A stretch of DNA of 64,000 nt from Chiloscyllium plagiosum (Eukaryota), in assembly GCF_004010195.1 (NCBI RefSeq), contig NC_057719.1, positions 36,242,585 through 36,306,584 on the forward strand. The letters run 5' to 3'. Shown one piece after another: positions 6,977 through 49,394 of this stretch (positions are counted from its first letter, which is position 1; every line of letters starts with the position of its first letter). Position numbers and translations under genes: made by a program. The notes beneath the pieces are model-generated. The model was not told where the DNA came from and did no database searches. It saw only the letters and a list, made by a program, of their open reading frames with translations.

Positions 6977-7190
6977 AAAAACAAAACAGAAATTGCTGGA
7001 AACTCTCAGCTGGTCTGGCAGCATCTGTGCAGAGAAATCCAAGTTAAAGATTTGGGTTCAGTCACCTTTCTTCAGCACTGCCAGTTAAGTCTGATTTTTC
7101 CCTGAAGATGTTGGCAGAACTGCTAAGATTTTCCACTAATTTCTGTTTTGGTTCTGATTTCCAGCATCTGCAGTTCTTTCAGGTTTTCAT
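6977..7190. mobile_element. Older inverted-repeat PLE-derived element (fourth family)
   Basis: AAAACAGAAATTGCTGGAAA...TTTTCCACTAATTTCTGTTTT form inverted arms, with a decayed CTGAAGA box on the minus strand near 7070-7076. A related copy lies at ~4750-4953 and 5215-5227. Confidence 0.5.
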
Positions 7191-10337: not shown

Positions 10338-10385
10338 CCACCTACCTGTAAATTCCCCTTATAATTTTATACATCTCAATCATGT

Positions 10386-10592
10386 GTTGCTAGAAAAGCG
10401 CAGCAGGTCAGGTAGCATCCAGGGAACAGGAGAATCGACGTTTCGGGCATAAGCCCTTCTTCAGGAATCGGGCTTATGCCCGAAACGTCGATTCTCCTGT
10501 TCCCTGGATGCTGCCTGACCTGCTGTGCTTTTCCAGCAACACATTTTCAGCTCTGATCTCCAGCATCTGCAGACCTCACTTTCTCCTCCTAT
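10386..10592. mobile_element. Short PLE-derived element, partially inverted (74-bp arms), 13-bp TSD
   Basis: Arms 10383-10456 and 10470-10543 with 3 mismatches. ATCTCAATCATGT occurs at 10373-10385 and 10593-10605. Confidence 0.8.
10432..10468 (-). ncRNA. Minimal hammerhead ribozyme motif, second family
   Basis: Minus strand ATTC-CTGAAGA-A-GGGC-ttat-GCCC-GAAA-CG-TC-GATTC has intact CUGANGA/GAAA/GUC, palindromic ACGT and a weak stem I. Confidence 0.65.
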
Positions 10593-11649
10593 ATCTCAAT
10601 CATGTCTCCCCTCAGTCTATGTTGCTTCCAGGGAAGTAGCCCCAAGTCTATCCAATCTATCCTCATAATTAAAACTCTCCAGACTAGGTACATCCTGGTA
10701 AATTTCCTTTGCATCCCTCCTAGAATATTGATTCAAGTGTGGCCAAAACAAAGTTTATACAGTTCCAGCATAACCTTCTTGCTCTCAAACTCTCTGCATT
10801 TGCTTTCTTAACCACCTCATTCACCTGTCCTGATGCCTTAAGAGACTGTGGCATGTACGCCAAGATCCCTCTGATCCTTGCTTGCGCCCAGAGGCTTACC
10901 ATTCATCATTGATTTCTTTGCCTTGTTTGTCTTGCATAAATGCTTCACCTCCCACTTATTCGGATTGAATTACATTTACAACTGATGAGCCCACCTGACC
11001 AGTCTGTCCAAATCCTCCTATAATTTAAGGCTATTTTCCTCACTGTTTACCACCCCACCAATTTTCATATCACTCTCGAACTTACTGATCCACCACATAC
11101 ATTCAGATCTAAAATGTTTAAATATACCATAAACAGTAAGTTCCCCATCACATATCCCTGTGGAACCCTACTGGGTTCACTGTTCATTTCAGAACCCATA
11201 ATGAGAGGGGTCATCAGCAACATGGGAATTTGTTCAAGGGATTAAACAGTTGCATGGTCTGTGTTCCTGATTTGATGTCTGCTACATTCTGTTGCATAAA
11301 TTTGGGTCAGAAAAATTGAGTCTGCTATCAAGAAAAACCCTGCCTTATTTAAATACTTGGCTTTAAGTCAGGTCTCATTTTGAACCTTGTAGTCCCTGCC
11401 AAGGTTCCACTATTGCTCAACTTCATCCTATTTCGAATTAGTGCACAGGAATCTTGGATTGGCTATCCACATGCTTTGTATTAGAAAATTATTAGTTGGG
11501 ATGCTGAAAGTTTTCTTTGTATTTTGAATCACATTTTGCTGCATTTGCTTCATTTATGAGTTGATTTTAATGGGATGACTGCCATTTTACACTTCCTGTT
11601 GAAACTGGGTTTAAACAGGCTTTGTGGCTGCTGCTAATTTAATTGTAGA

Positions 11650-12260
11650 GTACATTGCTGATGATTGCGCAATATTCAACACTGTTCATGACTCTTTGGA
11701 TCCTGAAACAGTCTATGAACATGTACAGCAAGACCTGGGTAATATCCAGGCTTGGCTGTTAAGTGGCACACAAATGCCAGGCAAATATCATCTCCAACAA
11801 GAAAGAATCTAACTAGCTCCCCTTGCCATTCAGTGGCATTATCATCACCAGATTCCCACTTCAGCATCCTGAAGGTTACCATTGACCAGAAACTGTACTG
11901 GGCCAATTATATAATCATAGTCGCTGCAAGAGCAGGGCAGAGGCTAGCAATGCTGTAGCGAGTAACTCACCTCCAGACTCCCCAACATCTGTTCACCATC
12001 TAATGGCTCGAATGAAGAGTGTGGAGGAATGATCCTCACTTACTTGGATGAGTGTAGCTTTGACAACATCCAAGAAGCTCAAAATAATTCAGATCAAGGC
12101 AGCCTGCATGATTGGTGTCACATTCAACATCTTCAACATTCATTCCCTCCACCATTGATGCACAGTGGCATTAGTGAGTATCACCTCCAAGATGCACTGC
12201 AGCACCTCACCAAGGTTCCCACATAGCACCTTTCAAACAGATAACCTCTACCACCTAGCA
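11650..12260 (+). mobile_element. Old CR1/L2-group LINE RT fragment
   Basis: YIADDCAIFNTVHDS...QQDLGNIQAW, homologous to ~44800-45300. Confidence 0.65.
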
Positions 12261-13738
12261 CCATGATTTCTACCTACACTGGGGGTAGCTGATTCCATTG
12301 GGGGCAGCTGATCATTTCAATAGCCAGCTGTCTTCAGGAGCTACACTTGTGTGAACTACTAACAGATCCTCATCCTGTCCCTGCAAAACTGAGAGATATG
12401 ACATTCAGGAACAGGACTTGGATTTCTACTTCCTTTTGGCATCTGGAGCCTCTTTGTCCGATTCCTGACTTTCTTGACTCTGCCTCCATCTTTCTCATGT
12501 CTGTTTCTAAATCTCTTGATGTCAAATTTTGAAATTGAAAGTGCCACATAAATCCATATCGTTGTTTAAAATGTTTCCATCACCTCTCTTCAGTTTGGGT
12601 TATAACCCACTCGTAAAAGATTCGGATTTGTATTCAGATCTCTCTCAGATTATCTTAATATTGGCTGAAAAGACAACACAGTCAATGTAGCCATTTCCGT
12701 GACTGACCTTTGAAGCTGTGCAAGTTCCAGCTGGGAAGAGAGCCTCACAATTTGGAGGTGGCTGAGGTGCACAATGTTAAGGAGGTGAAGCAGTGGACCC
12801 AAATAACCCCCCCTCCTGTCCATCGCCAAAGTCACATGTGCCATTGGGGTATGGTGGACCTAGCACAGTATAACAGCAATTACTCTGAAGGGCCCTGGGC
12901 TCACACCTCAGTTGGGTCTTTGCAGTTCCATCATCCGTAGGGTTGATGGGAATGTGCATGGCAGAGACGCCAGCCTGTTTCATGCTAAAATGTCAATTTA
13001 TTCTATTTATGTTATAGGATGCAAATTTGCATATTAAAAACATTTGGCATCTAAAAGTGAAACTGAAACAGAAAATGCTGGAAACGCCAACATATAATCA
13101 AACAAGACATAAGGAATACTGCTTGTGAGAAGTTGGAAGGGTTCAGGAAGGATACCTCAGTGTGTGGGACTTCTGCAGCTGATACCACAATTCTAAAAGA
13201 TGGAAAATTCAGCTGGTGGCAGGCTGGATATGGAAACTACAAATGATGGTGGGGAAAGAAAACAAAAATCAACAGTAAACTTAACTCAGAGCATACAGTA
13301 GTGGCCAAGGACAACTTTTGGTTTTCTTAATGTCCAACAAAGGAAATTGTGGCTCATCCAAAAAGCAGATGCATTCCAACAGCACATAAGAGTTCCTCCT
13401 GCTTATCTGCCAAGGGAGCTGATAGCTATGGACATCTGTTCCCAGCAAAGCTTCAAAAGATAGAACATGAGCTTTTTTAACTCAAATCTGGTCATTTTTA
13501 AAGAAAGGAATGAGAAAGGATAAATATAAATAGGGACGAAGAAGTGCAGTGATGTAGTGGGAAGAGATAGAGATGTACACACGTGCATTAATAATGACAA
13601 CAGATGGATATGTAATCATCAAAATGAGAAACTATTCAGGATATATCATGATTTGGAGATGCCGGTGTTGGACTGGGGTGTACAAAGTTAAAAATTACAC
13701 AACACCAGGTTATAGTCCAACAGGTTTAATTGGAAGCA

Positions 13739-13773
13739 CACTAGCTTTCGGAGTGACGCTCCTTCATCAGGTG
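13739..13773 (-). ncRNA. Minimal type I hammerhead ribozyme motif (inverted twin)
   Basis: Exact reverse complement of 13849-13883. Confidence 0.8.
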
Positions 13774-13848
13774 ATAGTGGAGGGCTCAATCCTAACACAG
13801 CAAAAATTTTTGCTATAAATTCTGTGTTACGATCGAGCCCTCCACAAT

Positions 13849-13883
13849 CACCTGATGAAGGAGCGTCACTCCGAAAGCTAGTG
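13849..13883 (+). ncRNA. Minimal type I hammerhead ribozyme motif (PLE-associated)
   Basis: CAC-CTGATGA-A-GGAG-cgtca-CTCC-GAAA-GC-TA-GTG. Stem I is CAC/GTG, stem II is GGAG/CTCC, palindromic AGCT replaces stem III, and the predicted cut is after CUA (13880). Confidence 0.8.
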
Positions 13884-13930
13884 TGCTTCCAATTAAACCT
13901 GTTGGACTATAACCTGGTGTTGTGTGATTT

Positions 13931-14325
13931 NNNNNNNNNNNNNNNNNNNNNNNNNNNNNNNNNNNNNNNNNNNNNNNNNNNNNNNNNNNNNNNNNNNNNN
14001 NNNNNNNNNNNNNNNNNNNNNNNNNNNNNNNNNNNNNNNNNNNNNNNNNNNNNNNNNNNNNNNNNNNNNNNNNNNNNNNNNNNNNNNNNNNNNNNNNNNN
14101 NNNNNNNNNNNNNNNNNNNNNNNNNNNNNNNNNNNNNNNNNNNNNNNNNNNNNNNNNNNNNNNNNNNNNNNNNNNNNNNNNNNNNNNNNNNNNNNNNNNN
14201 NNNNNNNNNNNNNNNNNNNNNNNNNNNNNNNNNNNNNNNNNNNNNNNNNNNNNNNNNNNNNNNNNNNNNNNNNNNNNNNNNNNNNNNNNNNNNNNNNNNN
14301 NNNNNNNNNNNNNNNNNNNNNNNNN
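13931..14325. other. Assembly gap (395 N)
   Basis: Run of n. Confidence 1.
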
Positions 14326-15215
14326 ATCTGTGTGTGTATAGTGCACTGGTGGTCACCTGTAGTGTGACATGAACCCAAAGTCCCGGTTGAGGCCCTCCCT
14401 ATGGGTACCGAACTTAGCTATCAGTCTCTGCTCGGCCACTTTTCTCTGCTGCCTGTCCCGAAGTCCACCTTGGCGGATGGTCACCTGAAGGTCCGAGGCT
14501 GAATGTCCGGGACCATTGAAGTGTTCCCCAACTGGGAGGGAACCCTCCTGTCTGTTGATTGTTGTGCGGTGCCCATTCATCCGTTGTCGTAGCCTTTGCT
14601 CGGTTTCCCCAATGTACCATGCTTCAGGGCATCCTTGTCTGCAATGTATAACATAGACAACATTGGCTGAGTCACATGAGTACCTGCCATGTACAAGGTG
14701 GGAGGTGTCCCCACGCGTAATAGTGGTATCTATGTCCACACTCTGACACGTCTTGCAGCGCCTACCGTGACAGGGTTGTATGGAGTTGTCCTGAAAGCTG
14801 GGCAGCTTGCTACAAACAACAATCTGTTTGAGGTTTGGCGGTTGTTTAAAGGCAAGTAGTGGAGGTGTGGGGAAGGTCTTGGTGAGGTGCTCATCCTCAT
14901 TGGTAATGTGTTGCAGGTCACGAAGAACATGGCGTAATTTTTCAGCTCCTGGGAAATACTGAATATGTTTTGGATGGAAACTGGAGAAGTGTAGCATTGT
15001 GAAGTTGTCTGTTGGTTTAGTGGTAGAGTGTGGTGCTGAGGTGTCCATCCTTGATGGAGACGCATGTGTCCAAGAATGAGACAGATAGTCAAGAGTTGTC
15101 CATGGTGAGTTTGATGGTGAGATGAAACTCGTTGATGTCACTGTGTAGTTTTATCAGTGACTCCTCGCCATGGGTCCAGAGGAGGAAAATGTCGTCCATG
15201 TAACTGGTGTACAAC
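14326..15215 (-). mobile_element. Penelope-like element (Neptune-type), 5'-truncated: RT C-terminus, Cys linker, GIY-YIG endonuclease
   Basis: YMDDIFLLWTHGEESL (RT motif C, ~15160-15203), Cys linker PCHGRRCKTC, and GIY-YIG-type SANVVYVIHC...WYIGETEQRLRQRMNGH...VGEHF...AEQRLI...GLN. Frameshifts and a stop are present. Confidence 0.88.
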
Positions 15216-15490
15216 GTGTACAGTAAGTGAAAAATAGCTATTTAAAAATAATCAAAGAATTGGAGTCAGTTTGGATAAAATATACAGTATCTGTGTTTCC
15301 CTTGTTATCATTGTGTTACAGTCTGACATCATTGCAACTGAAATGTGTGGTTTATTCATGTCAATGAAATGACTGTGATACAATATTGCCACCTACTGTT
15401 GTAATAGCATATAGAAATGTGAACATCAAAATGACAATAATCTCAGAACTGATTGGCGGACTCGTCAAGTTCCAACTGCTCCAAAGATGC

Positions 15491-15617
15491 GGTAAAAACA
15501 ATGACTGCAGATGCTGGGAATCAGATTCTGGATTAGTGGTGCTGGGAGAACACAGCAGTTCAGGCAGCATCCAAGGAGCAGCGGAATCGACGTTTCAGGC
15601 AAAAGTCCTACATCAGG
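15491..15617 (-). mobile_element. Short PLE-derived element, degenerate hammerhead
   Basis: Reverse complement homologous to 1-143. Core reads CTGATGT...GAAACGTC. Confidence 0.65.
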
Positions 15618-18600
15618 AGGAACAGAGAGAATGGGAACATGGACATGGTGAGAGCGAGAGCAAAGAGACAGTGGGAGCATGGATACAGTGAGAAAACGGT
15701 GAGAGCGAGAGTACTGAGACAGTGGGAGCATGGATACAGTGAGAAAACGGTGAGAGTGAGAGCGCAGAGACAGTGGGAGCATGGATACAGTGAGACCATA
15801 GTGAGAGCAGCAGCACAGAGACATTGGCAACATAGATACAGTGAGAACAGAGTGGATACAGGGAAGATACAGTGAGAGAGAGATCACATAGACTGTGGGA
15901 ACTAGGATACGGTGAGGACACACAGAGTAAGATGACAGAGATAGTGGGAATATGGATACAGTGAGAACATGGTGTGGGCGGGAGCATAGATACAGTGAGG
16001 TCACAGTGAGAGCGGGAGCACAGAGACAGTGGGAACATGGATACAGTGAGAACACGGTGCGAGCGGGAGCACAGAGACAGTGGGNNNNNNNNNNNNNNNN
16101 NNNNNNNNNNNNNNNNNNNNNNNNNNNNNNNNNNNNNNNNNNNNNNNNNNNNNNNNNNNNNNNNNNNNNNNNNNNNNNNNNNNNNNNNNNNNNNNNNNNN
16201 NNNNNNNNNNNNNNNNNNNNNNNNNNNNNNNNNNNNNNNNNNNNNNNNNNNNNNNNNNNNNNNNNNNNNNNNNNNNNNNNNNNNNNNNNNNNNNNNNNNN
16301 NNNNNNNNNNNNNNNNNNNNNNNNNNNNNNNNNNNNNNNNNNNNNNNNNNNNNNNNNNNNNNNNNNNNNNNNNNNNNNNNNNNNNNNNNNNNNNNNNNNN
16401 NNNNNNNNNNNNNNNNNNNNNNNNNNNNNNNNNNNNNNNNNNNNNNNNNNNNNNNNNNNNNNNNNNNNNNNNNNNNNNNNNNNNNNNNNNNNNNNNNNNN
16501 NNNNNNNNNNNNNNNNNNNNNNNNNNNNNNNNNNNNNNNNNNNNNNNNNNNNNNNNNNNNNNNNNNNNNNNNNNNNNNNNNNNNCAGGGAGAACACGGTG
16601 AGAGCGAGAGCGCAGAGACAATGCGAACATGGATACAGTTTGAACACGGGGAGAGCAGGAGCACAGAGACAATGGCAACATAGATACAGGGACGACACAG
16701 TGAGAAAGAGATCACAGAGACAGTGAGAACATGGATACAGTGAAAACATGGAGAGAGTGGGAGCACTGAGACAGTGGAAACATGGATACAGTGAGAACAT
16801 GGTGAGAGTGGGGGCACAGAGACAGTGGGAACATGGATACAGTGAGGACACAGTGAGAGTGGGAGCACAGAGACAATGGGAACATGGAGACAGTGAGGAC
16901 ACAGTGAGAGTGGGAGCACAGAGACAGTGGGAGCATGGATACAGTGAGAACATGGTGAGTGTGGGAGCGCAGAGACAGTGGGAACATGGATACAGAGAGA
17001 ACACGGTGAGAGTGGGAGCACAGAGACAGTGAGAGCATGGATACAGTGAGAACACGGTGAGAGTGGGAGCACAGAGACATTGGGAACATGGATACAGTGA
17101 GAACACACTGAGAGTGAGATCATAGAGACAGTGGGAACATGGATACAGTGAGAACACGGTGAGAGTGGGAGCACAGACACAGTGGGAACATGGATACAGT
17201 GAGAACATGGTGAGTGTGGGAGCGCAGAGACAGTGGGAACATAGATACAGTGAGAACACGATGAGAGTGGGAGCACAGAGACAATGGGAACATGGATACA
17301 GTGAGAACACACTGAGAGTGAGATCATAGAGACAGTGGGAACATGGATACAGTGAGAACATGGTGAGTGTGGGAGCACAGAGACAGTGGGAACATGGATA
17401 CAGTGAGAACACGATGAGAGTGTGTGCACAGAGACAGTGGGAGCCTGGATACAATAAGGACATACGGAGAATGGGAGCACAGAGGCAATGGCAACAGAGA
17501 TACAGTGAGAACACGGTGAGAGCGGGAGCACAGAGACAGTGGGAACATGGATACTGTGAGAACACGGTGGGAGCGGGAACACAGAGACAGTGGGAACATG
17601 GATACTGTGAGAACACGGTGGGAGCGGGAACACAGAGACAGTGAGAGCATGGATACAGTGAGAACAGGGTGAGAGCGTGGGCACAGAGACAGTGGGAACA
17701 TGGATACAGTGAGGTCACGGTGACAACGGGGGAGCAGAGAGGGTGAGAGCATGCATACAGTGAAGACACGGTGAGAGTGGATGCACAGAGACAATGTGAA
17801 CATGATTACAGTGAGAATACAGTGAGAGCGTGTGCACAGAGACAGTGGGAACATGGATATAGATAGGACACAGTGACAGCGAGAGCACAGAGACAGTCAG
17901 AACATGGTTACAGTGAGAACACGGTGAGAGTGGGTGCACAGAGACAATGAGAACATGGATACAGTGAGAACACGGTGAGAGGAAGAGCACAGAGACAGTG
18001 TGAACATAGTTATAGTGAGAACATGGTGAGAGCGGGGCACAGAGACAGTGGGAACATGGATATAGTTAGGACACAGTGACAGCGAGAGCACAGGGACAGT
18101 GGGAACATGGATACAGTGAGAACATGGTGAGAGTGGGAGCACAGAGACAGTGGGAACATGGATACAGTGAGGACACAGTGAGAGCGGGGGCACAGAGACA
18201 GTGGGAAAATGGATACAGTGAAAACACGATGAGAGCGAGAGCACAGAGACAGTGGGATCATGGATACACTGAGGTCACGGTGAGAGTGGGAGCTCAGAGT
18301 CAGTGGGAGCTTGGATACAGTGAGATCACGGTGAAAGTGGGAGCACAGAGACAGTGGGATCATGGATAACGTGAGAAAACGCTGAGAGGAAGAGCGCAGA
18401 GACAGTGGGAACATGGATACAGTGAGGACATACTGAGAGTGGGAGCACAGAGACAGTGGGAACATGGATACAGTGAGAACATGGTGAGAGCGGGAGCACA
18501 GAGACAGTGGGAACATGGATACAGTGAGAACACGGTGAGAGCAAGAGCACAGGGACTGTGGGACCATGGATACAGTGAGAACACGGTGAGAGCAGGAGCA

Positions 18601-23480: not shown

Positions 23481-24044
23481 GCTTGAGCTGTTAGAATGGG
23501 ATACTTTCTTTTCACAGCAACTGGGAAGATTAGCTGAAATCATGGAGAATTGTCTCTGGATTATTACAGATGGGGTGTGAGCTGAGAGATACATGTCAGA
23601 ACCCAGTGTGACTCCCAGTGTCGATTTGGGAATTGCTGGGGATGGTTAAACTTCTGTTGGGCTTATATCCTGCTATCCAGGACCCTCCACTAATATTTCT
23701 GACTATGTGCTTAAGCTTTTCAAGTGGAACTTTAAGAAAGACACCTGTAAACTTGCTCAGGAAATATGAGGCAATTTAAAAACCGGGACAGAATCTTCCA
23801 ATTCCAAAGGTGGCAGATCTGGAAGCAGGAAGGCAGGTGGCATCCCTAACACTCGCCTACAGGATGCACAATAGGACTTTCTTCTCACACGGCTAATTGA
23901 GGCCGTTAGATGATCAATTCATGACCAGTTAATTAAGGATCAATTTAGAGACTTGTTCTCACTTGGGCCGCAATTTGCTCAGCTCTAGTTGGAACAATGA
24001 AGAGTCAGTTCAGGTGACAGGTGAACCAGTGTGGACAGCTTGTT

Positions 24045-24172
24045 CTTGATGAAGGGCTTTTGTCTGAAACATTGATTTTCCTGCTCCTCGGATGCTGCCT
24101 GACCTGCTGTGCTTTTCCAACACCACTCTGAACTTGACTCTAATCTCCAGCATCTGCAGTCCTCACTTTTGC
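24045..24172 (+). mobile_element. Short PLE-derived element, 19-bp TSD
   Basis: CCAGTGTGGACAGC(t/c)TGTT at 24026-24044 and 24173-24191. Hammerhead core is degenerate. Confidence 0.75.
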
Positions 24173-25369: not shown

Positions 25370-25532
25370 CAGGAGAAAGTGAGGACTGCAGATGCTGGAG
25401 ATCAGAGCTGAAAAATGTGTTGCTGGAAAAGCACAGCAGGTCAGGCGGCATCCAAGGAGCAGGATAATCGATGTTTCGGGCATAAGCCCTTCTTCAGGAA
25501 TCATTCTTGATTTTCCAGCAACACATTTTTCA
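25370..25532 (-). mobile_element. Short PLE-derived element with small inverted piece, 14-bp TSD
   Basis: GCTCATTCCTTCCC at 25356-25369 and 25533-25546. Core CTGAAGA...GAAACATC on the minus strand. Confidence 0.75.
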
Positions 25533-25779
25533 GCTCATTCCTTCCCGTCTGTCCTGCTGTCACTGGTTTTATCCTGCTTCGATCAGGCTCAGAGTTGACC
25601 CATTAGATTGCCATGATAGCTGAAATGCATCTGGTACAGGGGACTCCTGCTGAACACAAGAACTAGGAGTGGCAGCAGGCTATTCAGCCCATCGAACCCA
25701 CCCCCACCTGAAATAATCATTGAGGCTGGTGCCTTCAACTCCACTTCCCTTTCTCTACCCTACAATCCCTGTCTCTCTC

Positions 25780-27741: not shown

Positions 27742-30700
27742 TTGTGGCTGTAAGCTGCTCCTTTTTTGAGGTATTTTAGGTGTTGGACATGATTTCCTCA
27801 AATTCCAGGAGCAGCAATTACTGTCTTATAAGCTGTTGCATTGCTTTGGAACTTTGGGGGAAGAAAGATCAAAACAACGGCAGTTTAAAAAAGAGAAAGA
27901 CACCCAAAGGCAGAGACAACAAGGTCAGAGAAAGAAACCTGCACTGATGTCTGACACAGCAGTGAGTCTGCATAGTTACTGCCTTTGCTTTTTGAGTTCA
28001 AGTATCTCTGGACATCAGAGTATGTCTGGGAAAAGTTAACAAACAGCGAGATTCACAGCTGTCCTTGGAGGAACCGGTGTGGGAGGGCTCACAGCACAGG
28101 AACAGATAAGTGCACAGTTTTAAATGTAATCTTGCTGTAAATCTACAATAGTGGTTGGAGGTGGGACCCAGTGAAATGGTGAGGAAAGAGATCAATCTGA
28201 GACTGTTATACTGTAGTTGGGAAAAGGAGCTAGTCAGACAGTCAGGGCAGGCAGGAACAAAGCAGAGAATAAGGTAGAATTGATAAACTAAACCGCATTT
28301 GTTTCAATGCAAGAGGCCTAACAGTGAAGGCAGATGTACTCAGAGCATGGTTAGGAACGTGGGACTGGGATATTATAGCAATTATAGAGATGTGGCTCAG
28401 GAATGGACAGGATTGGCAGCTTAGTGTTCCAGGGTTAAATGCTATAGGAAGGATACAAAGACGGGAAGTGGCATTTTTGATAAGGGATAGCATTACAGCT
28501 GTACCGAGGGAGGATATTCCCAGAAATACATCCAGGGAAATTATTTGGGTGGAACTGATAAATAAAAAAGGGATGGTCATCTTATTGGGATTGTACTATA
28601 GTGGGAAATTCAAGAAACAAATTTGTAAGGAGATTTCAGTTATCTATAAGAATTATAGGGTGGTTATGGTAGGGGATTTTCCAAATATAGACTGGGACTG
28701 CCATAGTGTTAAGGGTTTAGATGTAGAGAAATTTGTTAAATGTATACAAGAAGGTTTTCTGATTCAGAATGTGGATGTACCTACCAGAGAAGGTGTAAAA
28801 CTTGACCTACTCTTAGGAAATAAGGCAGCACAGCTGTCTGAGGTGTCAGTGGGGGAGCACTTTGGGGACAGTGACCATAATTCTATTAGTTTTAAAATAG
28901 TGATAGAAGAGGATAGACCAGATCTAAAAGTTGAAGTTCTAAATTGGAGTAAGGCCAATTTTGACGGTATTAGGCAAGAACCTTTAAAAGTTGACTGGGG
29001 ACAAATGTTTGCGGTAAAGGGAAGACTAGATAATGAGAAGCGTTCAAAAATGAGATAATGAGAGTCCAGAGACAGTATATTCCTGTTAGGGTGAAAAGCA
29101 AGCCTAGTAAATGTAGGGATTGTTGGATGACCAAAGAAATTAAGGTTTTGGTCAAGAAAAAGAAGGAAGCCTATGTCAGGTACAGACAGCAGCGATTGAA
29201 TGAATCCTTAGAAGAGTATAAAAGCTGTAGGAATATACTTAAGAGGGAAATCAGGAGAGCAAAAACGGGCCATGAGATCGCTTTGGCAATTAGGGTTAAG
29301 GAGAATCCAGAGGGATTCTATAAATACATTAAGGACAAAAGGGTAACTAGGGAGAGAATAGGGCCCCTCAAAGATCAGCAAGGCAGCCTATGTGTGGAAC
29401 CAAAGGAGTTGGGGGAGATACTAAACGAGCATTTTGCATCAGTGTTTACTGTGGAGAAGGCCCTGGAAGATATAGAATATGGGAAATAGGTGGTGACATC
29501 TTGAAAAATGCCCACATTACAGAGGAGGAAGTTCTGGATGTCTTAAAATTCACAAAGATGGAAACATCCACTGGACCTGATCAGGTGTACCCTATAACTC
29601 TATGGGAAGGTAGGGAAGTGATTGCTGGGTTGCTTACTGAGATAATTGTATCATTGATAGTCACAGATGAGGTGCCATAAAACTGGAGGTTGGTTAACTT
29701 GGTGCCAGTATTTAAGAAAGGTGGTAAGGACAAGCCAGGGAACCATAGACCGGTGAGCCTGACATCGGTGGTGGGCAAGTTGTTGGAGGAAATCCTGAGC
29801 GACAGGATTTACATGTGTTTAGAAAGGCAAGGACTGATTAGGGATCATCTCTTATTAACTTGATTGAGTTTTTGAAGTAACAAAGAGGATTGATGAGGGC
29901 AGAATGGTGATCCATATGGACTTCAGTAAAGCGTTCGACAACATTCCCCATGGGAGACTGGTTATCAAGCTTAGATCTCATGGAATACAGGGAGAACTAG
30001 CCATTTGGATATAGAACTGGTTCAAAGTTAGAAGACAGGCCTATGATCAGTGATATGCCATAAAGATCGGTGCTGGGTCCACTGCTTTTCATCATTTATA
30101 TAAATGATTTGGATATGAACAAAGTAAGTATATTTAGTAAGTTTGCAGATGACACTAAAATTTGAGGTGTAGCGAACAACGAAGAAGGTTATCTCAGAGT
30201 TTGACAGGATCTTGATCAGATGGGCCAATGGGCTGAGGAGTGGCAGATGGAGTTTAATTTAGATAAATGTGAGGTGCTGCATTTTGGAAAAGGAAATCAG
30301 AGCAGGACTTATACACTTAATGGTGAGGTCCTGGGGCATGTTGTTGAACAAAGAGACCTTGGAGTGCAGGTTTCTCATTCCCTTAAAGTGGAACCACAGG
30401 TAGATAAGATAATGAGGAAGGCATTTGGTCTACTTTCCTTTATTGGTCAGAGCTTTGAGTATAGGAGTTGAGAGGTCTTGTTATGGCTGTACAGGACATT
30501 AATTCGGCCACTTTTGGAATATTGTGTGCAATTCTGGTCTCCCTCCTAATTGAAGAATATTGTGAAACATTAAAGGGCTCAGAAATGATTGCCAAGGCTG
30601 TTGCCAGTGTTGGGCAATTTGGGCTATCGGGAAAGACTGAACAGAATGGAGAGTCAGAGGCTGAGGGATGACCATGTAGAGGTTTATAAAATCATGATAG

Positions 30701-38350: not shown

Positions 38351-39104
38351 CTACTGCCCAGTGCACTTTTTTCAGGCAATAGAAGATCCACTAAAAACCC
38401 AGAATGGTTTCTTGCCAGGACACCACTGACTGTATTGATGAACATAGCTGGCCTGGAGTCAGTCAGGAATATATATCAGAATTATTTAAAGGATCTAATA
38501 TTGTTGATTTATCTTTCAGGCCCTGCTGTCAGTTTTTAACATGTCAACACTTCTCATGGGTCCCTCAACTCACACAACAACTGACATTAAGATCCAGTCA
38601 TGAACATCATGTAGTTTTGGTTTCTGGTTTCTGATTGCCCCGCTGCAGCTGCTGTTCTGGCCTTTTGTTTTGTTGTGTTTGTCACTCTGGACAGTTCAGT
38701 TGACTAAACAAATCAAGAATTTGCAGGTGTTGCACTAGTTTTAACTGTCTCATAGATAGTTTGGCTACAGCCTTTGGTGCTTTAATAGAGTTGGGATGTA
38801 GGGACACCTGTATTTAATTTGCAAGCATGTATCTGACCATTGAGCTATTCACCATTTTAATTGTACATTTGTGTCCTTGGCCTGCTGCAAAGTTTCAGGG
38901 AAACATAATGCAAGCTTGAGGAACAGTGCCTCATCTTCTGATGAGGCGCTTTATAGACTTCAGGGCTGTACTTTGAGTTCAACAGCTTCAGACAGTGAAT
39001 TCTATCTTATATTTTCTTTCCTTTCTTTGCTGATAAGTGCCTGTAGGTTTCTTATTTTCTTGTCTGTGCTTCATTCAGGCAGCTGTCTTTTATTCTACCA
39101 TGAG

Positions 39105-40964
39105 TAAATCTATGGATTTAGGAGAGCTAGAAGAGGGCATGAGGAAGCTTTGGTGGGTAGGATTAAGAAAAACTCTAAGACGTTATACATTTATGTGAGG
39201 ATCAAAAGGATGGTCAGAGTGAGGGTAGGGCTGATCATGGATGGTGGAGGGAACTTGTGCCTGAAGTTGGAGGAGGTAAGGGAGGTCCTTAATGAATACT
39301 TTGCTTCAGTATTCACTAGTGAGCGGGACCTTATCATTTATGAGGACAGCATGAAACAGGCTGATATGCTCAAACAGGTTGATGTTAAGTAGGATGATGT
39401 GCTGGAAATTTTGAGAAACATGAGGATAGATAAGTCCCCTTATCTGGGCCAGACGGGATATACCCAAGGTTACCATGGGAATCGAGGGAAGAGGTTGCTG
39501 TGCCTTTGGTAATGATCTTTGTATCCTCACTGTCCACTGGAGTATTACCAGATGATTGGAGGGGAGCAAATGTTATTCCCTTTTTCAAGAAAGGGAATAG
39601 GGATAATCCTGGGAATTACAGACCAGTTAGTCTTGTGTCTGTGGTGGGCAAATTATAAGAGATAATTCTGAGACAGGATGTATGACTATTTGGAAAAGCC
39701 TAGTTTGATTAGCATGGCTTTGTGAGGGGCAGATCATGCCTTGCAAACCTTATTGAATTCCTTGAGGATGTGACAAAACACATTGAAGGTAGAACAGTTG
39801 ATGTGGTCTATATGGATTTTAGCAAGGCATTTGATAAGGTTCCCCATGGTAGACTCATTCAGAAAGTAAGGAGGCATGGGATACAGGGAAATCTGTCTGT
39901 TTGGATATAGAATTGGCTGGCCCGTAGAAGACAGGGGGTGGAAGTAAATGGAAAGTATTCAGCCTGGAATTCAGTGACCAGTGGTGTTCTGTAGGGCTTC
40001 TGCTCTTTGTGATTTTTATAAATGACTTGGATGAGGAAGTGGAAGGGTGGGTTAGTAAGTTTTCTGATGACACAAAGGTTGGTGGAGTTGTGGATATGTA
40101 GAGGGCTGTTTCAGTTTGCAACAGGACATTGACAGGATGCAGAGCTGGGCTGAGAAGTGGCAGATGGGCTTCAACCTGGAAAAGTGTGAAATTATCCATT
40201 TTGGAAGGTCAAATTCAAATGCAGATTACCCGGTTAAAGGCAGGATTTTTGGCAGTGTGGAGGAACAGAGGGATTTTGGGGTCCATGTCCATAGATCCCT
40301 TAAAGTTGTTACCAAGTTGATAACATTGTTCAGAAGGTGCATGGTGTGTTGGCTTTCATTAGCAGGGGAATTGAGTTTAAGAGCCATGAGGTTATGCTGC
40401 AGCTCTATAAAGTCCTGGTTAGATCATGCTTGGAATATTGTGTTCAATTCTGGTCACGTCATTATTGGAAGGATGTGGAAGCGTTAGAGAGATTGTTGAG
40501 GGGACTTATCCAGGATGCTGCCTGGACTGGAGGGCATGTCTTATGAAGAAATGTTGAGGGAGCTAGGGCTTTTCTCATTGGAGTGAAAAAGGATAACAGC
40601 TGACTTGATAAAGGTGTACAAGATGATGAGAGGCATAGTTAGAGTGAATAGTCAGAGTCATTTTCCTAGGGCGGAAATGGCTATCATGGTGGGGAATAAA
40701 TTTAAGGTGATTGGAGGAAGGTTTACGGGAGATGTCAGAGGTAGGTTCTTTACACAGAGTGGTGGGTGGGTGCAATACACTGCTAGCAGCTGTAGTAGAG
40801 TCAGATACATTAGGGACATTTAAGCAACTCTTGGAAAGGCACTTCGATGATAATAAATTGTAGGGATGTAAGTTAGTTTGATCTTAGAGTAGAATAAAAG
40901 GTCGGCACAACATCAAGAGCTGAAGGGCTTGTACTGTGCTGTACTGTTCTATGTTCTATGTTCT
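39105..40964 (+). mobile_element. CR1-type LINE, 5'-truncated
   Basis: GRSCLANLIEF...VDVVYMDFSKAFDKVPHGRL and WAEKWQMGFN, with (GTTCTAT)n tail. Same family as 9298-10280. Confidence 0.88.
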
Positions 40965-41276
40965 AACCAGTGGTCACAGTCTCAGGATACAGGGTAATCC
41001 ATTTAGAACTGAGATGAAGAAGTGTTCCCTAATTTAGAGGGTGGTCAACTTATGGATACAGATCTAGCATTCATGATGTAAAAGGGCTAATTAACAATCT
41101 TGTTGTGAAAGAGATGAAAGACCACAATATGAGAGAACTTTACATATTGTGTGAAAGTGAGGTCTTTCCAGCCAAAGCAAGGGTGTAAAATTTGAATAAG
41201 GAAAATTACAAAGACATGAGGCACGAATTGGCTGAAGGGATTGTGAAAATTCATTAAAAGACAGGTCTATACATAG

Positions 41277-41412
41277 AATGGATTCCTGAAGGAGTGCTTA
41301 TGCCCGAAACATCGACTCTCTGCTCCTCGGATGCTGCCTGGCCTGCTGTGTTTTTCCAGCACCACATTTTTCAACTCTGGTACTCCAGCATCTGCAGTCC
41401 TCACTTTCTCCT
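41277..41412 (+). mobile_element. Short PLE-derived element, 14-bp TSD
   Basis: AGG(t/a)CTATACATAG at 41263-41276 and 41413-41426. Degenerate core CTGAAGG...GAAACATC. Confidence 0.75.
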
Positions 41413-42189
41413 AGGACTATACATAGGCAATGGATAGTCTTTACGAACTATTGCATGACTGACAGCAAATGTATATTCACTCAAGGTACAGACTCAAAAA
41501 GGTCAGCTATAGTTAGTAAAAGATTGGAAGAAAACAGCCACAAAATTTCAGAAAAAGTAATAATTCTGAAGATTGATATATTTATATAGTACAACAAAGG
41601 AGGACCAAGAAACTACGAAGAAGGGGTAAGTAGAATCAAATGAAAACCATAAACAATGGATTGCAAAAGCTTTTAAAGGTTTTCGTGACAGGAAATGTTT
41701 AGCTAATACAGATGTGTGTTCATTACAGGCAGAGTTAGGAGAACTTATGAAAAAGAAATGATGCTCAATGATTACTTTGTGTCTGTTTTCACTGAGCAAG
41801 ATGCCAGCAATCTCCCAGAACCAGAGTTCAAAGGAGCTATAAGAAGTTGAAGCAAATTAGGATAAATAAAATTGCATTGAAGAAATTGATGGGACTGAAT
41901 TTGATCAATCCCCAGATTCTAATGGTATACATTCCAGAGTGTTGAAGGAGGTGCTACAGCGATGGTTGATGCATTGATGTTTATCTTCAAGCATTCTAGA
42001 GATTCTGGAATAATTCCTGCAGATTGGATAGCAAATGTCACCACGCTAGTTGAGAAGGAAGCAAGAGAGGAAGCAGAGAACTATAGATATGACTAGCTTA
42101 CATTAGTAGTAGGGAAAATGCCAGAATCTGTTATGAAGGATGGGATAAGTAGATACCTGGCTGATAATGATCTGATTTGGAATATCCTG

Positions 42190-42286
42190 CCCCACTAGTT
42201 ATCTGGCAAAGGAGCAGCACTCTGAAAGCTTGTAGTTTCAATAAACCTGTTGGACTATAACTTTGGGTTGTGTGATTTTTAACTTC
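42190..42286 (+). mobile_element. Decayed copy of the Neptune-type PLE terminal repeat
   Basis: GGAGCAGCACTCTGAAAGCTTG...AAACCTGTTGGACTATAAC...TTGTGTGATTT matches 13860-13930. Confidence 0.6.
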
Positions 42287-43029
42287 GATATGTAATAGTC
42301 AGCACGGATTTGCGAATGGGAATTATGTTTGATGAACTTGCTGAAGTATTTTGGAGGTATTACAAATTAAAAATATATAGTACACATAAAAATGATTTGG
42401 AATTGGGGACCAAATGTAATATTTCATAATTTACGAGCATAAAATACAAGTGGAAATTTGTTTTGTGAGGATAATGTAAAGCAGCTTAGAAAGTGGGCAA
42501 GAACATGGCAGTTGGAATATAATGTGAAAACATGTGAGGTTATCCACTTTGTTGGGAGAAACAGATGTGCAGAGTATGTCTTAGCTGATAAGAGGTTGGA
42601 AAGTGCAAATGCACAAAGGGACCGAGAGGTCCTTGTGGAGAAGTCACTGAAGGCTAACATGCAGGTGCAGTGAGCTGTTGAGAACTGAATTGAATGTTAA
42701 ATTTTATCCTAAAAGGATTTGAGTACAGGAATAATGAAAACTTACTTCACTTGTATAGGAACTTGGTTAGACCGCACATGGAGTACAGTGTGCAGGTTTG
42801 GTCTCTATAGCAAGAGTGTGACAAAGGTCCATCAGGATAGTGGGACTATTCTATGAAGAGAGGTCGTGCAAACTGGGCTTGTTTTCTCTTGCATTTCACA
42901 GAGAAACATTAAAACTTATAAAAGACTTAAAGGTACAGACAAGATATGCTGTAAAACAAGCAGGCTGTGGAATCTAGAATCAGGGTCCTTAAAAAAAAAT
43001 TTTAAAATAATTTGCCATTCTTCTCAGAG

Positions 43030-44290
43030 CATAGAACATAGAACATTACAGCACAGTACAGGCCCTTCAGCCCTCGATGTTGCACTGACCCGTGAAACCA
43101 ATCTGAAGCCCATCTAACCTACACTATTCCTTTCTCATCCATATGCCTATCAATGGCCATTTAAATGCCCTTTAAGTTGGCAAGTCTACTACTGTTGCAG
43201 GCAGTGCGTTCCACGCCCATACTACTCTCAAGTAAAGAAACTACTTCTGACATCTGTCCTATATCTATCACCCCTCAATTTAAAGCTATGTCACCTTGTG
43301 CTAGCCATCACCATCCGAGGAAAAAGGCTCTCACTGCCCACCCTATTTAACCCTCTGATTATCTTATATGTCTCAATTAAGTCACCTCTCAACTTTCTTC
43401 TCTTTAACAAAAACAGCCTCAAGTCCCTCACACCTTGCTCATAAAACCTTCCCTCCATACCAGGCAACATTCTAGTAAATCTCCTCTGAACCCTTTCCAA
43501 AGCTTCCACATCCTTCCTATAATGTGGTGACCAGAACTGTACGCAATACTCCAAGTGCGGCTGCACCAGAGTTTTGTACAGCTGCAGCATGACCTTGTGG
43601 CTCCGAAACTTAATCCCTCTACCAATAAAAGCTAACACACCATATGCCTTCTTAACAAGCCTATCAACCTGTGTGGTAACTTTCAATGTATACATGGACA
43701 TTGAGATCACTCTGCTCATCTACACTACCAAGAATCTTACCATTAGCCCAGTACGCTGCATTCCTGTTACTCATTCCAAAGTGAATCACCTCACACATTT
43801 CCGCATTAAACTCCATTTGCTATCCCTCAGCCCAGCTCTGCAGCTTATCTACATCTCTCTGTAACCTTCGTCACTACCCACAACGCTACTGACCTTGATA
43901 TCATCTGCAAATTTACTAATCCACCCTTCTATGCCCTCATCCAGGTCATTTATAAAAATGACAAACAGCAGTGGTCCCAAAACACCACTGCAGTACACCA
44001 ATAGTAATTGAACTCCAAGATGAATATTTCCCATCAACTACCACCCTCTATCCTCTTTCAGCTAGTCAATTTCTGATCCAAACAGCTAAATCACCCTCAA
44101 TTCAATGCCTACGTATTTTGTGCAATAACCTACCGTGGGGAACCTTATCAAATGCCTTACTGAAATCCATATGCGCCACATCAATCGCTTTACCCTCATC
44201 CACCTGTTTAGTCACCTTCTCAAAGAACTCAGTAAAGTTTGTGAGGCACGACCTATCCTTCACAAAAACGTGTGACTATCCCTAACCAAC
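43030..44290 (-). mobile_element. CR1-type LINE, 5'-truncated
   Basis: GVLGPLLFVIFINDLD...SKFADD and [19 protein letters not shown]. Confidence 0.88.
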
Positions 44291-44439
44291 CTATCTCTTA
44301 ATTCTGAGATGTGGAAATTTTTTTATTCTAAAGGGTTGTGAACTTTTGGAATTCTGTACCACAGATGGTATGGAAACTCAGTCTTTGCATATGTTTAAGG
44401 CAGAGATTGATAGCTTTCTGATTACCGATGACCTTATTT

Positions 44440-47210
44440 TATTTAGTCATGGGACATTGGCATCACTGGCTGGCCAGCATTTATTACCTGTCCTTAGTTG
44501 CCCTTGAGAAGGTGATGGTGAGTCGCCTTCTTGAACTGCTACAGTCTGTGTGCCGTAAATTGACCTACAATGACCTTAGAAAGGTAATTCCAGGATTTTG
44601 ACCCAGCAACAGTGAAGGAACGCTGATATATTTCCAAGTCAGATTGGTGAGTGGCTTGTAAGGGAATTTGCAGGTGCTGGTGTTCCATCTGCTGCCTTCT
44701 CCTTCTAGATGGAAGTGGTCATTGATTTGAAAGGTGCTGTTGAAGGATCTTTGATGAATTTCTATAGAGCGTCTTGTAGATAGTACATACTATGCCTACA
44801 GAGTGTCAGTAATGGAGGGAGTGGATGCTGTGGATGCAGCGCCAGTCAAATGGCCTGGATGGTATCAAGCTTAGTGAGTCTGTTGAAGCTGCACCCATCT
44901 AGGCAAATAGGAAGTATTCAATCAGACTCCTGATTTATGCCTTGTAAATGGTCAACAGGCTTTGGGGAGGCATGAGATGAGTTACTCATTGCAATATTCC
45001 TAGCCTCTGACCCACTCTTGTAGCCACTGTACGTTGTGGCAAATCCAAAGAGTTTCTTATCAATGGTAATCCCAGGATACTAATAGTGGGGGATTCAGTG
45101 ATGGTAACATTATTGAATGTCAAGGGGAAATAGTTAGATTGTCTCTTATTGGTGATGGTCATTGACTGGCATTTGTGTGGTGTGAATGTTACTTGTCACT
45201 TGTCAGGGCAAGCCTGAACATTGTCCAAACCTTGTAGTATTTGGACTGCTTCAGGATACGAGGAGTCAAGGATGGTGCTGAACGTTGTGCAATCATCGGC
45301 AAATCTCCTCACCTCTGACCTTACGAGGGAGGGAAGGTCATTGATGAAGCAGCTGAAGATGGTTGGGCCTAGAACACCAACCTGACTTGCAGAGATGTCC
45401 TGGAGCTGAGATGACTGACCTCCAATAACCACATACATCTTCCTAATGTGCTAAGTATGACTCCAATAAGTTTGCCCACTGATGATTGTATTTTTGCTTG
45501 GGCTCCTTGATGCCGCACTCAGTTGAATGAGGTCTTGATGTCAAGAGCTGTCACTCTCATATCACCTGTGGAATTAAGTTCCTCTGCTGTGTTTTTCCAG
45601 TAATTTCTGTTTTCATTTCTGGAATTCAGCTTTTTTGTCCATGTTTGAACCAAGGCTGTAATGAGGAGCTGAGTGGCCCTGGAGGAACCCAAACTGGGCG
45701 TCACTGAGCAGATTATTGCTGAGCAGGTGCTGCTTAATTGCACTGCTGATGACACCTTCCGTCACTTTACTGATGATCACAGTGGACTGATGGGGCAGTT
45801 ATTGGCCAGGTTGGATTTATCCTGCAGGTTCTGGAGTACAAATTTTCAGTACTATTGTCAGAATGGTGTCAGGGCCCACAGCCTTTGCAGTAACCAGTGT
45901 CTCCAACATGAAGTTAATCGAATTGGCTGAAGACTGTTATCCATAATGCTGGAGGAGGCTATGATGGATCATCCACTCAGCATTTCTGGCTGAGGGTTGC
46001 TGCAAATGCTTCCACCTTATCTTTGCACTGATGTGCTGGGTCTTCCATCATTGAGGATGGGGATATTTGTGGATCCTCCTCCTCAGTGAGCTATTTAATT
46101 GTCCACCATCAGTCATGACTGAATGTGGCAGGACTACAGAACTTGGTTGTGGGATTGCATGATTCTGTCTATCACTTGCTGCTTATGCTTTTTGGCATGC
46201 AAGTAATTCTGTTTGGTGGCTTCACCAGGTTGACACATCATCTTCAGGTATGCCTGGTGCTGTTCATTGCATGCCTTCCTGCACTTTGCATTGAACTAGA
46301 GTTGATCCCTGGCTGCATGGTATTGGTTGAGTGAGTATGGGCTAAGCTGGGCTATGGGGTTACAGATTGTGTTGGAGTACAATTCTGCTACTGTTGATGG
46401 CTAACAGCACCTCATGGATGCCTGATCTTGAGTTGCTAGGTCTGTTCGAAGTCTGTCCCATTTAGCACAGTGGTGGTGTAAACATGATGGAGATTATTTT
46501 TAATGTGAAGGCTTGTCTTTGTCTCCAGAAGAACTGTATGGTGGTTACTCTTACTTCAACTGGCCTGGACAGATGATCTGCAGCTGGCACATTGGGGAGG
46601 ATGATATCGACTATGTATTTCCCTCTTTGTTCGTTCCCTCACCACGCGCCGCAGATCCAGTCTAGCAGCTATGTCCTTTAGGATCCGACCAGCTTGAACA
46701 GTAATGCTACTGCTGAGCCACTCTTGGTGGTAGTAATTAAAATCCAGTGTATATTGTGTGCCCTTGCCACCCTTTGTGCTTCCTCCAAGCATTGTTCAAC
46801 ATGGAAGAGTACTGATTCATCATCTGAGGGAGGATGGTATTTCATAATCAGTGGGAGATTTCCTTGCTTATGTTTAACCTAAAGCCATGAACGTTCATGG
46901 GGTCTGGAGTCAATAATGAGGCCCCCCTGGCAACTCTCTCTGGACTGTGTACCACTCTGTTGCCACTATCCTGCTGGTGGGTCAGGACATATCCAGCGGT
47001 AGTGATGGTTGGGTCCAGGACATTGTCTGTAAGGTATAATTCCGTGAGTGTGACTATGTCGGGCTGTTATTTGACTAGTCTGAGAGACAACTCTCCCTAT
47101 TTTGGCACTAGCTCCCAGATGTTAGTTAGATGGACTTTGCAGGGTCAACATGGCAGGTGCAGTTTCTGTTCTTGTTTTTTCTGATGCTTAGGTCAATGCC
47201 AGGTTATCTG
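44440..47210 (-). mobile_element. Old CR1/L2-group LINE, long decayed copy
   Basis: VLGPTIFSCFINDLPSLVRSEVRRFADDCT and VTALDIK RT motifs. Tail ...AATAAATGCTGGCCAGCCAGTGATGCC at the left end. Related fragments at ~4040-4285, 11650-12260, 50615-51115, 55540-55990 and 62040-62350. Confidence 0.7.
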
Positions 47211-48288
47211 TCCAGTTTCATTTATTTGCAGCGATTGAAACTGAGTGGCTTGCTAGGCCATTTCAGAGAGCACTTCAGAGTCAACCACATTGCTGTGGGT
47301 CTGGAGTCACATGTAGGCCAGTCCTGATGACAATGGTAGAGTTCCTACCTGAAGGGTATTAGTGAGCCAGATGGGTATTTCTAACAATCAACAGTAGTTT
47401 CATGGTGTTCAGTAGATTCTTAATTTCAGGTTTTCTTTTCATTAATTGAATTCAAATTCCACTAGTGAGATTTGAATCTTGGTCCCCAGAACATCAGCAG
47501 AGTTTCTGGGTTAATACTGTATCAATGATAGCAATATGCAATACTTCCCCTGCTGCAAAGGTCTGAGTTTGGAGAAAGCAAAAAGCATTTAAGTAAAGAT
47601 CAGCTATGATCATTTTGAATGATGCGAACATGCTCCATAGGATAAATGGCTTATTCCTGTTCCTATGATGCTGTAGCTCTCTCAACAACAAAAAATCCAC
47701 CACCTTTCTACACATCTTCATATGGAAGTGTCATATTGCACTCAATACATCAACTCAATTTTTCTTTCCACCATTGCTGCCAGAACTGCTGAGATTTTCC
47801 AGCACATCCCTTCTTTTAAGATTTTCAGCAGGTGCAGTATTTTGCTTTTATTTTTAGCATTTTGCTCATGGTTTGCTCGTAACAGTAAAACTCCAAAAAT
47901 GTGAAAACTTATGCCATCTCTTCAGCTATGAGCTGGAAGTTTAAATTTCACTTTAAAGATTGTTGGTCTCTATGAACAGGACGGAAATTATCTCATTACT
48001 ATTTCACTGATCAATGGAATTGGCTGTGTATTTCTTTACAATAACCAATCATTGACTGAGTTGTCTTGATGGCTGGCACAATGTAAATACATGTCCTTCC
48101 TTTCTGACATACCACCTTTGAGGCTATTTGCGGTGATTATATGGTCTCTCATGCTTGTCTGGGATTTGTTTCTAGATTTATAGATTCAATGAGTTAGTCT
48201 CTTGACACATTCCTCACAAAAGACTTGCTGAGTAGCATATTAAGTGAATAATTAACCTTGTAAATAGATACCACTGACTACAATTCTA

Positions 48289-49394
48289 TTTATTCAATGC
48301 ATCGGTAATTATGTATATCATATAGCAGTCAAACATAAGTGTCTATTTGGTCAATTGCTCTTAAATGAATTTTTTAATGTATTTATGATGGGAAATGAAC
48401 ATTGTATCAATAGCGTGAGATTACTACAGCAAAATTTTCAATTTGTACATGAGTTTACTAAGCTTTTGAATAATTTAATGTAAAATTTCTCATTTCTCAT
48501 AAAATGTAAAAATCGACCTGATGATTTTTCATCTAAAGTGTAAACAAACACAATTTTTCATACACTTCGTGTAAAAGTCAATCTTAGTTTTCAAGGATCA
48601 AAAATCAAAAGTTTCAGAAATAAAGAATAATCCTGTAATTGCTAATGATTTGATTTTATTATAAAGGTGAAATTCTATTGAAAATGAGCACTGGTAAAAA
48701 AATGCTACAACATATTTTAATTGTTGTTTTTAATTCTTTCAAATGATTAAATTGACCATATTTGTGACTACATTTGTGAGTGACAAATGTAAATGTGATT
48801 ATAAATACTTATCGGTAGTTTATGTATAGCATGCTGTTAAGAAATCCCGTTATAAAATCAATAAATATTAGATTGTTATCAAGAATTCTTTAGTGTTGGT
48901 GATTTTTACTTTATCCATTATGACAACCTTTTTTTGCATTTCACTTGGGTCCAAATCAAGCAAATGCATCAACCCCTCAAACATAAACCATATGAAAATT
49001 AACTCCGTGAGAATGGCCTACAAAATTGAACTTTTAGACACAGTAGCTAAATCTATTGAAGCAGAATATATAAATCATGAATTCAGACAAAAGTAGGATT
49101 TTTCTATGCCTTGTTCAATCAGATCGTGCACAATTAAAAGAACATTTAACTCATTGCTATCCCATTCTGCAGGTTACAGTGTTGTGGTAATTTAAAAATA
49201 CCATCATAATGTATAAGTTTCCACTTGGTCAATTTACAATTCACATAAATTCATGTATATGTTTCTAAACATAACAATTATCAAAAACATTCAAACAATA
49301 ATTATTACAAAATGCTGGAATATGCACTAATAATTCTAAATATATTGTTAAATAATTCAATATAATATGGGCAAATTGATTTACAAACAAACAT
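48289..49394 (-). promoter_or_regulatory. DLK1: Probable DLK1 3'UTR with candidate poly(A) signals
   Basis: AT-rich, repeat-free sequence after the stop codon. AATAAA on the minus strand at 48655-48660 and 48289-48294. The true 3' end is unknown. Confidence 0.5.

Follow-up and report, generated by a model that had tools for sequence, protein, structure and literature searches.

Two hammerhead ribozyme motifs lie on opposite strands of a Chiloscyllium plagiosum chromosome, pointing away from each other beside an assembly gap of 395 N (13931-14325 of the 64,000-nucleotide stretch analysed here, hereafter the window). This arrangement raises the question of how such a pair arose, and whether it does anything to the RNA copied from it. 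The two 35-nt motifs (13849-13883 on the plus strand and 13739-13773 on the minus strand, 110 bp from start to start) are exact reverse complements, as the initial annotation had described, and each is a predicted minimal type I hammerhead with cleavage expected after 13880 and 13742, respectively, the former at the position first proposed for it. A strict minimal-hammerhead descriptor, suggested earlier as a check, matched exactly these two motifs in the window and none of 200 random sequences (first-order Markov sequences of window length and the same dinucleotide make-up), indicating that the motif is not due to chance. The companion covariance-type check, an Rfam scan of 11000-17000, gave no hammerhead match at E<=1. 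Three Rfam microRNA matches scored 34-35 bits, below the gathering thresholds of 48 and 70, and a microRNA precursor was rejected.

[quoted passage not shown] The earlier description of the hammerheads as intact holds for their cores, which are perfect, but not for their helices. Helix I has 3 bp compared to the published 4-5 bp (and 5 bp in the relative L002, described below), and the probability of its first pair in ViennaRNA is about 0 even in a lone arm. Both arms also carry a minority letter at 13754/13868, where the other letter accounts for 84-88% of family contig depth, and with it each has lost the fifth helix II pair, which is retained in most family copies. Judged from sequence, the motifs match the published description of minimal hammerheads in Penelope-like pseudo-LTRs (pLTRs) in everything except the short helix I.

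The arms around the motifs, aligned without gaps (13692-13800 and 13822-13930), are 109 nt each and 96% complementary. They are identical over 79 bp and differ at four positions that all fall outside the ribozyme (13696/13926, 13776/13846, 13788/13834 and 13792/13830), in agreement with the first description. This placement carries no sign of selection, since the probability that all four mismatches miss 35 of 109 positions is P=0.21, and we rejected selection as a reading of it. With gaps allowed, the left arm extends to 118 nt and the right arm to 127 nt, the left one lacking 9 nt, and the two run into each other. What had been taken for a palindromic spacer at 13800-13813 is therefore not a spacer: the arms overlap at a 6-bp palindrome, AAATTT (13804-13809), which marks the inversion junction, and family copies leave the alignment at 13800 and 13804.

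Each arm is a 3' end of the family with its sense direction pointing outward. Alignments and a contig-matched flank junction define the left arm (13647-13809, sense on the minus strand) as a 5'-truncated pLTR with a 9-nt deletion beside the centre and, at its 3' end, an optional tail of about 35 nt (13647-13681, minus strand) placed from family end-points and the published tail length. Alignments define the right arm (13804-13930, sense on the plus strand) as a 5'-truncated pLTR that enters the gap just before the tail boundary, so that its end and right flank are hidden. As assembled, this is the head-to-head inverted 5'-truncated copy, with a palindrome or overlap at the junction, that characterizes endonuclease-bearing Penelope-like elements, and the proposal that the minimal type I hammerheads sit in inverted terminal repeats of such an element is supported at the sequence level.

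We compared 12900-13850 with 4 of 24 sequencing runs, comprising three DNA runs (X4, X5 and X14, the last from organism B, a second species) and one RNA run (X21). Genome-wide counts rest on contigs aligned to this segment, of which there were 39,045-49,645 per DNA run. Summed contig depth, which is a rough allele share and not a copy number, was 10^4-10^7 on the repeat versus mostly 3-24 on the unique flank (one bin, 13060-13091, reached 89-271). The arms belong to a very abundant Neptune-like Penelope family in the shark. Among the loose ends listed (24 of 886), family copies exit at 13646-13649 into unrelated AT-rich flanks in at least 1,306 contigs of X4 and at least 1,428 of X14, and at 13682 in at least 63 contigs of X5. 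These two ends, 35 nt apart, define a tail as in Penelope-like elements and are a further mark of the endonuclease-bearing kind. The junction between flank and tail is matched by single contigs in X4 (13463-13670, 0 differences), X5 (13178-13673, 1 difference) and the second species (X14, 12900-13675, 26 differences and 2 gaps over 776 nt, or about 3.5%), indicating that the left arm is real and older than the split from that species.

The centre of the inversion is covered differently. None of the 24 pieces listed of about 138,600 bridges it; all of those pieces are at least 80 nt long, and a contig across the centre would be about 70 nt. Depth at 13802 is low in all three DNA runs (25, 66 and 94), and in X4 a contig with a depth of 7 shows a single-A difference at 13802; this low depth is compatible with a real centre and is no proof of one. 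Of the 15 joints listed (84 in total), six run from an antisense arm at 13699-13742 into a sense arm at 13804-13820; these have the head-to-head arrangement found here, at different loci and with different breakpoints. We discounted two joints between opposite strands (13782/13827 and 13799/13824) as ordinary copies that read over the 9-nt deletion of the left arm.

These data bear on whether the inversion was introduced by the assembler, which at the gap edge could have walked from an ordinary single truncated element (ORF, 3' UTR, pLTR and tail) into an inverted pair from elsewhere. The right arm does stop at the gap, copies of the family are extremely numerous, the centre is bridged by none of the contigs listed, and such structures are described as troublesome for short-read assemblies in the accessible text of PMC8557442. 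However, the four substitutions and the 9-nt deletion between the arms argue that the right arm is no simple duplicate of reads, the low-depth coverage at 13802 and the X4 contig that differs there by one A are compatible with a true junction, and a second family within the window shows this layout at sites distant from gaps and flanked by target duplications. We consider a gap-edge misassembly quite unlikely.

This second Penelope-type hammerhead family provides two head-to-head insertions, each with a tail on one side. The pair at 10382-10587 has a full core on its left arm (10441-10464, minus strand) and a right arm that starts inside the core and carries the tail, and its flanks, at 10370 and 10590, carry a target duplication of 16 nt in which 1 position is mismatched. 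The pair at 25371-25536 consists of a tailed copy with a core at 25474-25497 (minus strand) plus a 29-nt inverted piece, within a perfect 14-nt target duplication. Each of these pairs has a full core in one arm only, suggesting that twin cores would need nothing more than two truncation points that both fall upstream of the ribozyme. Solo copies of the second family at 24043-24172 and 41277-41412 have target duplications of 19 and 14 nt, respectively, and start within about 10 nt of the hammerhead core; further solo copies lie at 14-131, 15503-15618 and 7098-7177. Target duplications were found around four of the seven other copies checked in the window. A decayed solo copy of the twin-hammerhead arms' own family, 84% identical and with a damaged core, lies at 42209-42285, and no target duplication was found around it.

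Beyond the gap, on the minus strand, lies a dead, 5'-truncated RT/GIY-YIG ORF remnant (14353-15226), identified from its motifs and homologues; its association with the arms is a candidate one. The remnant retains the RT motif YMDD (15202-15191), is broken by both a stop and a frameshift near 15020-15090, and has lost an internal segment. It also carries a linker of the form CX4CXXC (14772-14746), placed between RT and endonuclease, and a VVY...YIG stretch with CXXXC, in which two cysteines lie between the GIY-YIG motifs (14661-14608), and it has the make-up of an endonuclease-bearing Penelope-like ORF. The linker fits the zinc-finger-like CX2-5CXXC pattern common to Neptune and Nematis, which it marks according to the accessible text of PMC8557442, and thus would place the remnant in the Neptune/Nematis group; we call the element Neptune-like on this basis and not on an RT tree. 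The Neptune-type remnant reported near the arms was thereby located, with its linker motif, on the far side of the gap. Its best homologues are shark and turtle RT proteins (73% for Heptranchias, about 40% for turtle), and it is 94% identical to a Chiloscyllium punctatum protein model over 36% of the query. The endonuclease was recognized by Pfam in homologue P0009 and not in the remnant. A 6-bp stem with a 3-nt loop is present at the 5' break of the remnant (15208-15222).

A pattern scan of metagenome contigs returned two loci, L001 and L002, that represent one element; the same scan returned 0 loci in genome contigs and 0 in viral contigs. In L002, a marine metagenome contig, the end of a GIY-YIG ORF is 46% identical to the remnant over 151 aa and has downstream of it, in sense, a hammerhead with 92% identity over 36 nt, which ties the ribozyme-bearing end to this kind of ORF. 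Part of the L002 ORF end (positions of about 10-105 and 990-1085) reappears inverted in the 3' UTR, as seen by eye. Locus searches seeded with proteins returned 34 and 6 candidate stretches, none of which was confirmed, and yielded no shark copy with a complete 3' UTR.

The distance between the stop of the ORF remnant and the left hammerhead is 583 nt (459 nt if the right arm is left out), compared to 755 nt in L002. As the remnant and the left arm share a strand, the left arm could be that copy's own end, and the palindrome may then record two events. On this account, a short plus-strand pLTR copy would have entered the 3' UTR of the ORF copy on the minus strand, facing the opposite way, and become joined to it at the 6-bp palindrome. 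Both insertion into or next to older copies and an opposite-orientation secondary insertion have been reported for Penelope-like elements (accessible text of PMC11167929, and of PMC3846280 for a rotifer). Three of the four arm differences (13776, 13788 and 13792) also fall at family-polymorphic sites where both letters are common (20-68% of depth), a pattern more easily explained by two templates or two events than by a single fold-back copy. However, no target duplication connects the flank left of the tail with that to the right of the ORF's 5' break; the best match, 8 nt with 1 mismatch, is at the level of random windows, and we rejected a duplication enclosing the left arm and the ORF remnant. 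Moreover, an identity of 79 bp together with a shared minority letter held by 12-16% of family depth would be rare in independent copies that had not undergone gene conversion. We regard two separate insertions as unlikely; the hairpin and the silenced ribozymes would again be by-products.

The best explanation, in our view, is that the locus is probably one real insertion of a Neptune-like Penelope-like element that left two 5'-truncated pLTR copies head to head, with the ribozymes as passengers. This reading draws on the geometry, the two family ends, the joints at other loci, the target-duplication-flanked pairs of the second family, the literature and the folding described below; against it stand the concealment of the right end and any target duplication within the gap and the lack of a centre-bridging contig among those listed. 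In such an insertion, the RT-endonuclease would start cDNA synthesis at the tail site, and the mirror arm would be made as part of that integration, through self-priming at the palindrome or, alternatively, priming on the second nicked strand; the loss of 9 nt next to the centre may date from integration or from later. The presence of a whole hammerhead in both arms implies that the template RNA had not been cut, and the 79-bp identity and shared minority letter at 13754/13868 are as expected from one template. A variant that we hold tentatively, and think rather unlikely, is suggested by the three arm differences that are common family alleles and not private mutations: a dimeric RT-endonuclease could have primed both nicked strands on two different uncut RNAs, the cDNAs being joined at the palindrome. 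One start would then lie at the tail and the other at the tail-less site. The variant as a whole would be distinct from the published self-priming.

The initial annotation had suggested that the locus could act as a switch, with hairpin folding in competition with self-cleavage, and as a source of dsRNA. Because the arms stand head to head and point outward, the antisense arm is transcribed before the ribozyme in either direction, and a read-through RNA would present this arm first and fold into a hairpin of more than 100 bp in which neither ribozyme could form. In an equilibrium model of folding that omits kinetics, Mg2+ and protein, the full hairpin was favoured over the ribozyme fold by 69.1 kcal/mol on the plus strand and 69.4 kcal/mol on the minus strand, the probability of helix II was about 0 at five of five prefix lengths for either strand, and two 35-mers paired as the active-type dimer reached -11 kcal/mol versus -71 kcal/mol for the motif with its own antisense. 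Since loop 3 is missing, a second copy of the same sense is needed, and the opposite-strand twin cannot supply that dimer. On this model, the part of the proposal in which read-through RNA from either strand would form a long dsRNA hairpin is supported, and such RNA would be dsRNA and a possible substrate for small-RNA production or editing; the long hairpin should block the hammerhead, however, and not switch it.

A poly(A) signal, ATTAAA, at 13725-13730 on the minus strand starts 11 nt after the predicted cut of the left hammerhead, and a putative counterpart for the right arm lies at 13892-13897 on the plus strand. AATAAA replaces ATTAAA in 33-40% of family depth at the site where the arm copy at 13647-13809 has the latter. 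In the part of X21 that was read, about 2% of a poly(A)-primed single-cell library, 2,015 reads fell on 12900-13850. Long non-templated tails occurred at 13713 (323 reads), 13710 (399 reads) and 13648 (80 reads), a family-level signal that need not come from this locus. The tails at 13713 and 13710 begin 12-15 nt after the ATTAAA at 13730-13725; the predicted cut lies 29-32 nt upstream of these two sites, and the tail region downstream of them. Family reads run through the predicted cut, and no pile-up of read ends occurred there in X21, a library type that would hardly show either cleavage product; these reads indicate a pool of uncut family RNA, by which cleavage is not excluded. A cut would strip the poly(A) tail, and polyadenylated RNAs that end before the tail region could not template tailed copies. 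None of the 2,015 reads touched the unique flank, and transcription of the locus itself was not seen in this sample.

The perfect cores speak for the proposed switch, as do a left junction common to the second species despite a flank about 3.5% different and the siRNAs produced from inverted Penelope copies in Drosophila (accessible text of PMC3681739). Against these stand the antisense-first order in both directions and the 69 kcal/mol gap, the missing same-sense dimer partner, the non-significant placement of the mismatches, the helix II pair lost in both arms, the absence of flank reads in the portion of the one RNA run that was read, and the published behaviour of metazoan minimal hammerheads, whose monomers showed no cleavage and whose dimers showed little in the accessible text of PMC4209133. 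We judge a selected switch with a dsRNA supply to be highly improbable.

The layout itself has precedents. Dual minimal hammerheads about 100-700 bp apart on opposite strands are described, with Schistosoma mansoni as an example, by Cervera and de la Pena (2014, PMC4209133), in whose accessible text the metazoan monomers did not cleave and the dimers cleaved weakly. The motifs here share with those of metazoan Penelope-like elements the type I core, the extra base between 9 and 10.1, the G10.1-C11.1 pair and the palindromic 15.2-16.2 segment that lacks loop 3, and likewise belong to a massive dispersed family, the spacing of the opposite-strand pair being 110 bp; they differ in their shark host and in helices I and II of 3 and 4 bp, compared to 4-5 and 7-8 bp in Schistosoma. 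Head-to-head inverted pLTRs with palindromic junctions, for which self-priming was proposed, are reported by Arkhipova et al. (2013, PMC3846280), and an inverted truncated copy with a one-sided tail of 30-40 bp is typical of Penelope-like elements according to Craig et al. (2021, PMC8557442). In the accessible text of these two sources, endonuclease-bearing insertions resemble ours in the truncated pLTR with an inverted copy, the overlap or palindrome at the junction and the tail at one end, whereas our arms are only about 120-160 nt long. In the usual Penelope-like diagram, the ORF lies downstream of the right arm, whereas the remnant here is found on the far side of the gap and has the left arm's orientation.

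For PAc, a Poseidon element of Anolis, Frangieh et al. (2024, PMC11167929) report that uncut RNA is the substrate of insertion and that the hammerhead cleaved only with protein and was dispensable for insertion. As far as the accessible text of that paper goes, PAc also resembles the shark family in having two reverse-transcription start sites that define the tail and no RNA-seq ends at the cut site; unlike it, PAc belongs to the Poseidon clade and has an ORF that starts inside the hammerhead, the corresponding ATG here being stopped after 8 codons. The generation of siRNAs by inverted Penelope copies is reported for Drosophila (accessible text of PMC3681739). Non-LTR retrozymes, as presented in the accessible text of a preprint (bioRxiv 10.64898/2026.07.22.740005), are likewise non-coding, derived from Penelope-like pLTRs and equipped with type I hammerheads, but their ribozymes are direct, tandem and of the same sense, whereas the inverted pair here cannot release a monomer; with no two or more direct tandem same-sense units, a retrozyme was rejected. 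We found no shark case in the literature covered, which largely leaves aside subscription journals, and the supplements of PMC4209133 and of the 2026 preprint may list shark motifs. The layout is an ordinary by-product, described before, of the way Penelope-like elements integrate, and the one-event, nested-insertion and misassembly readings are all ordinary.

The surroundings offered no host exon near the locus. Of 93 long frames in the window, 69 were scanned with Pfam (the other 24 being mostly satellite or overlapping), and the two matches obtained both lie elsewhere; short exons would escape such a scan. The locus lies past a Delta-like EGF gene, about 35 kb beyond its last exon. That exon, of a Delta-like/DLK-type gene (49398-50177, minus strand), encodes three EGF repeats together with a likely membrane segment and a tail that is short, and its best solved-structure match is Delta-like protein 1. 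A 261-codon frame at 28273-29055 (plus strand) contains an Exo_endo_phos domain and is probably a LINE endonuclease remnant. A long G/A-skewed satellite with 17/51-nt periodicity runs from 15600 to at least 18000 and is interrupted by a 500-N gap.

In itself the locus is of small importance, being one among a great many stumps left by an abundant Penelope-like family, in a known layout. A hairpin switch, if true, would be a new kind of RNA regulation, and the evidence here is against it. As a clean illustration, the locus shows the hammerhead riding along uncut at integration and blocked in inverted pairs. If integration did use two templates, an open question of Penelope-like replication could be settled by comparing subfamily alleles in left and right arms. 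Such palindromes are numerous enough in sharks for a statistical test of how the inverted ends of Penelope-like elements originate.
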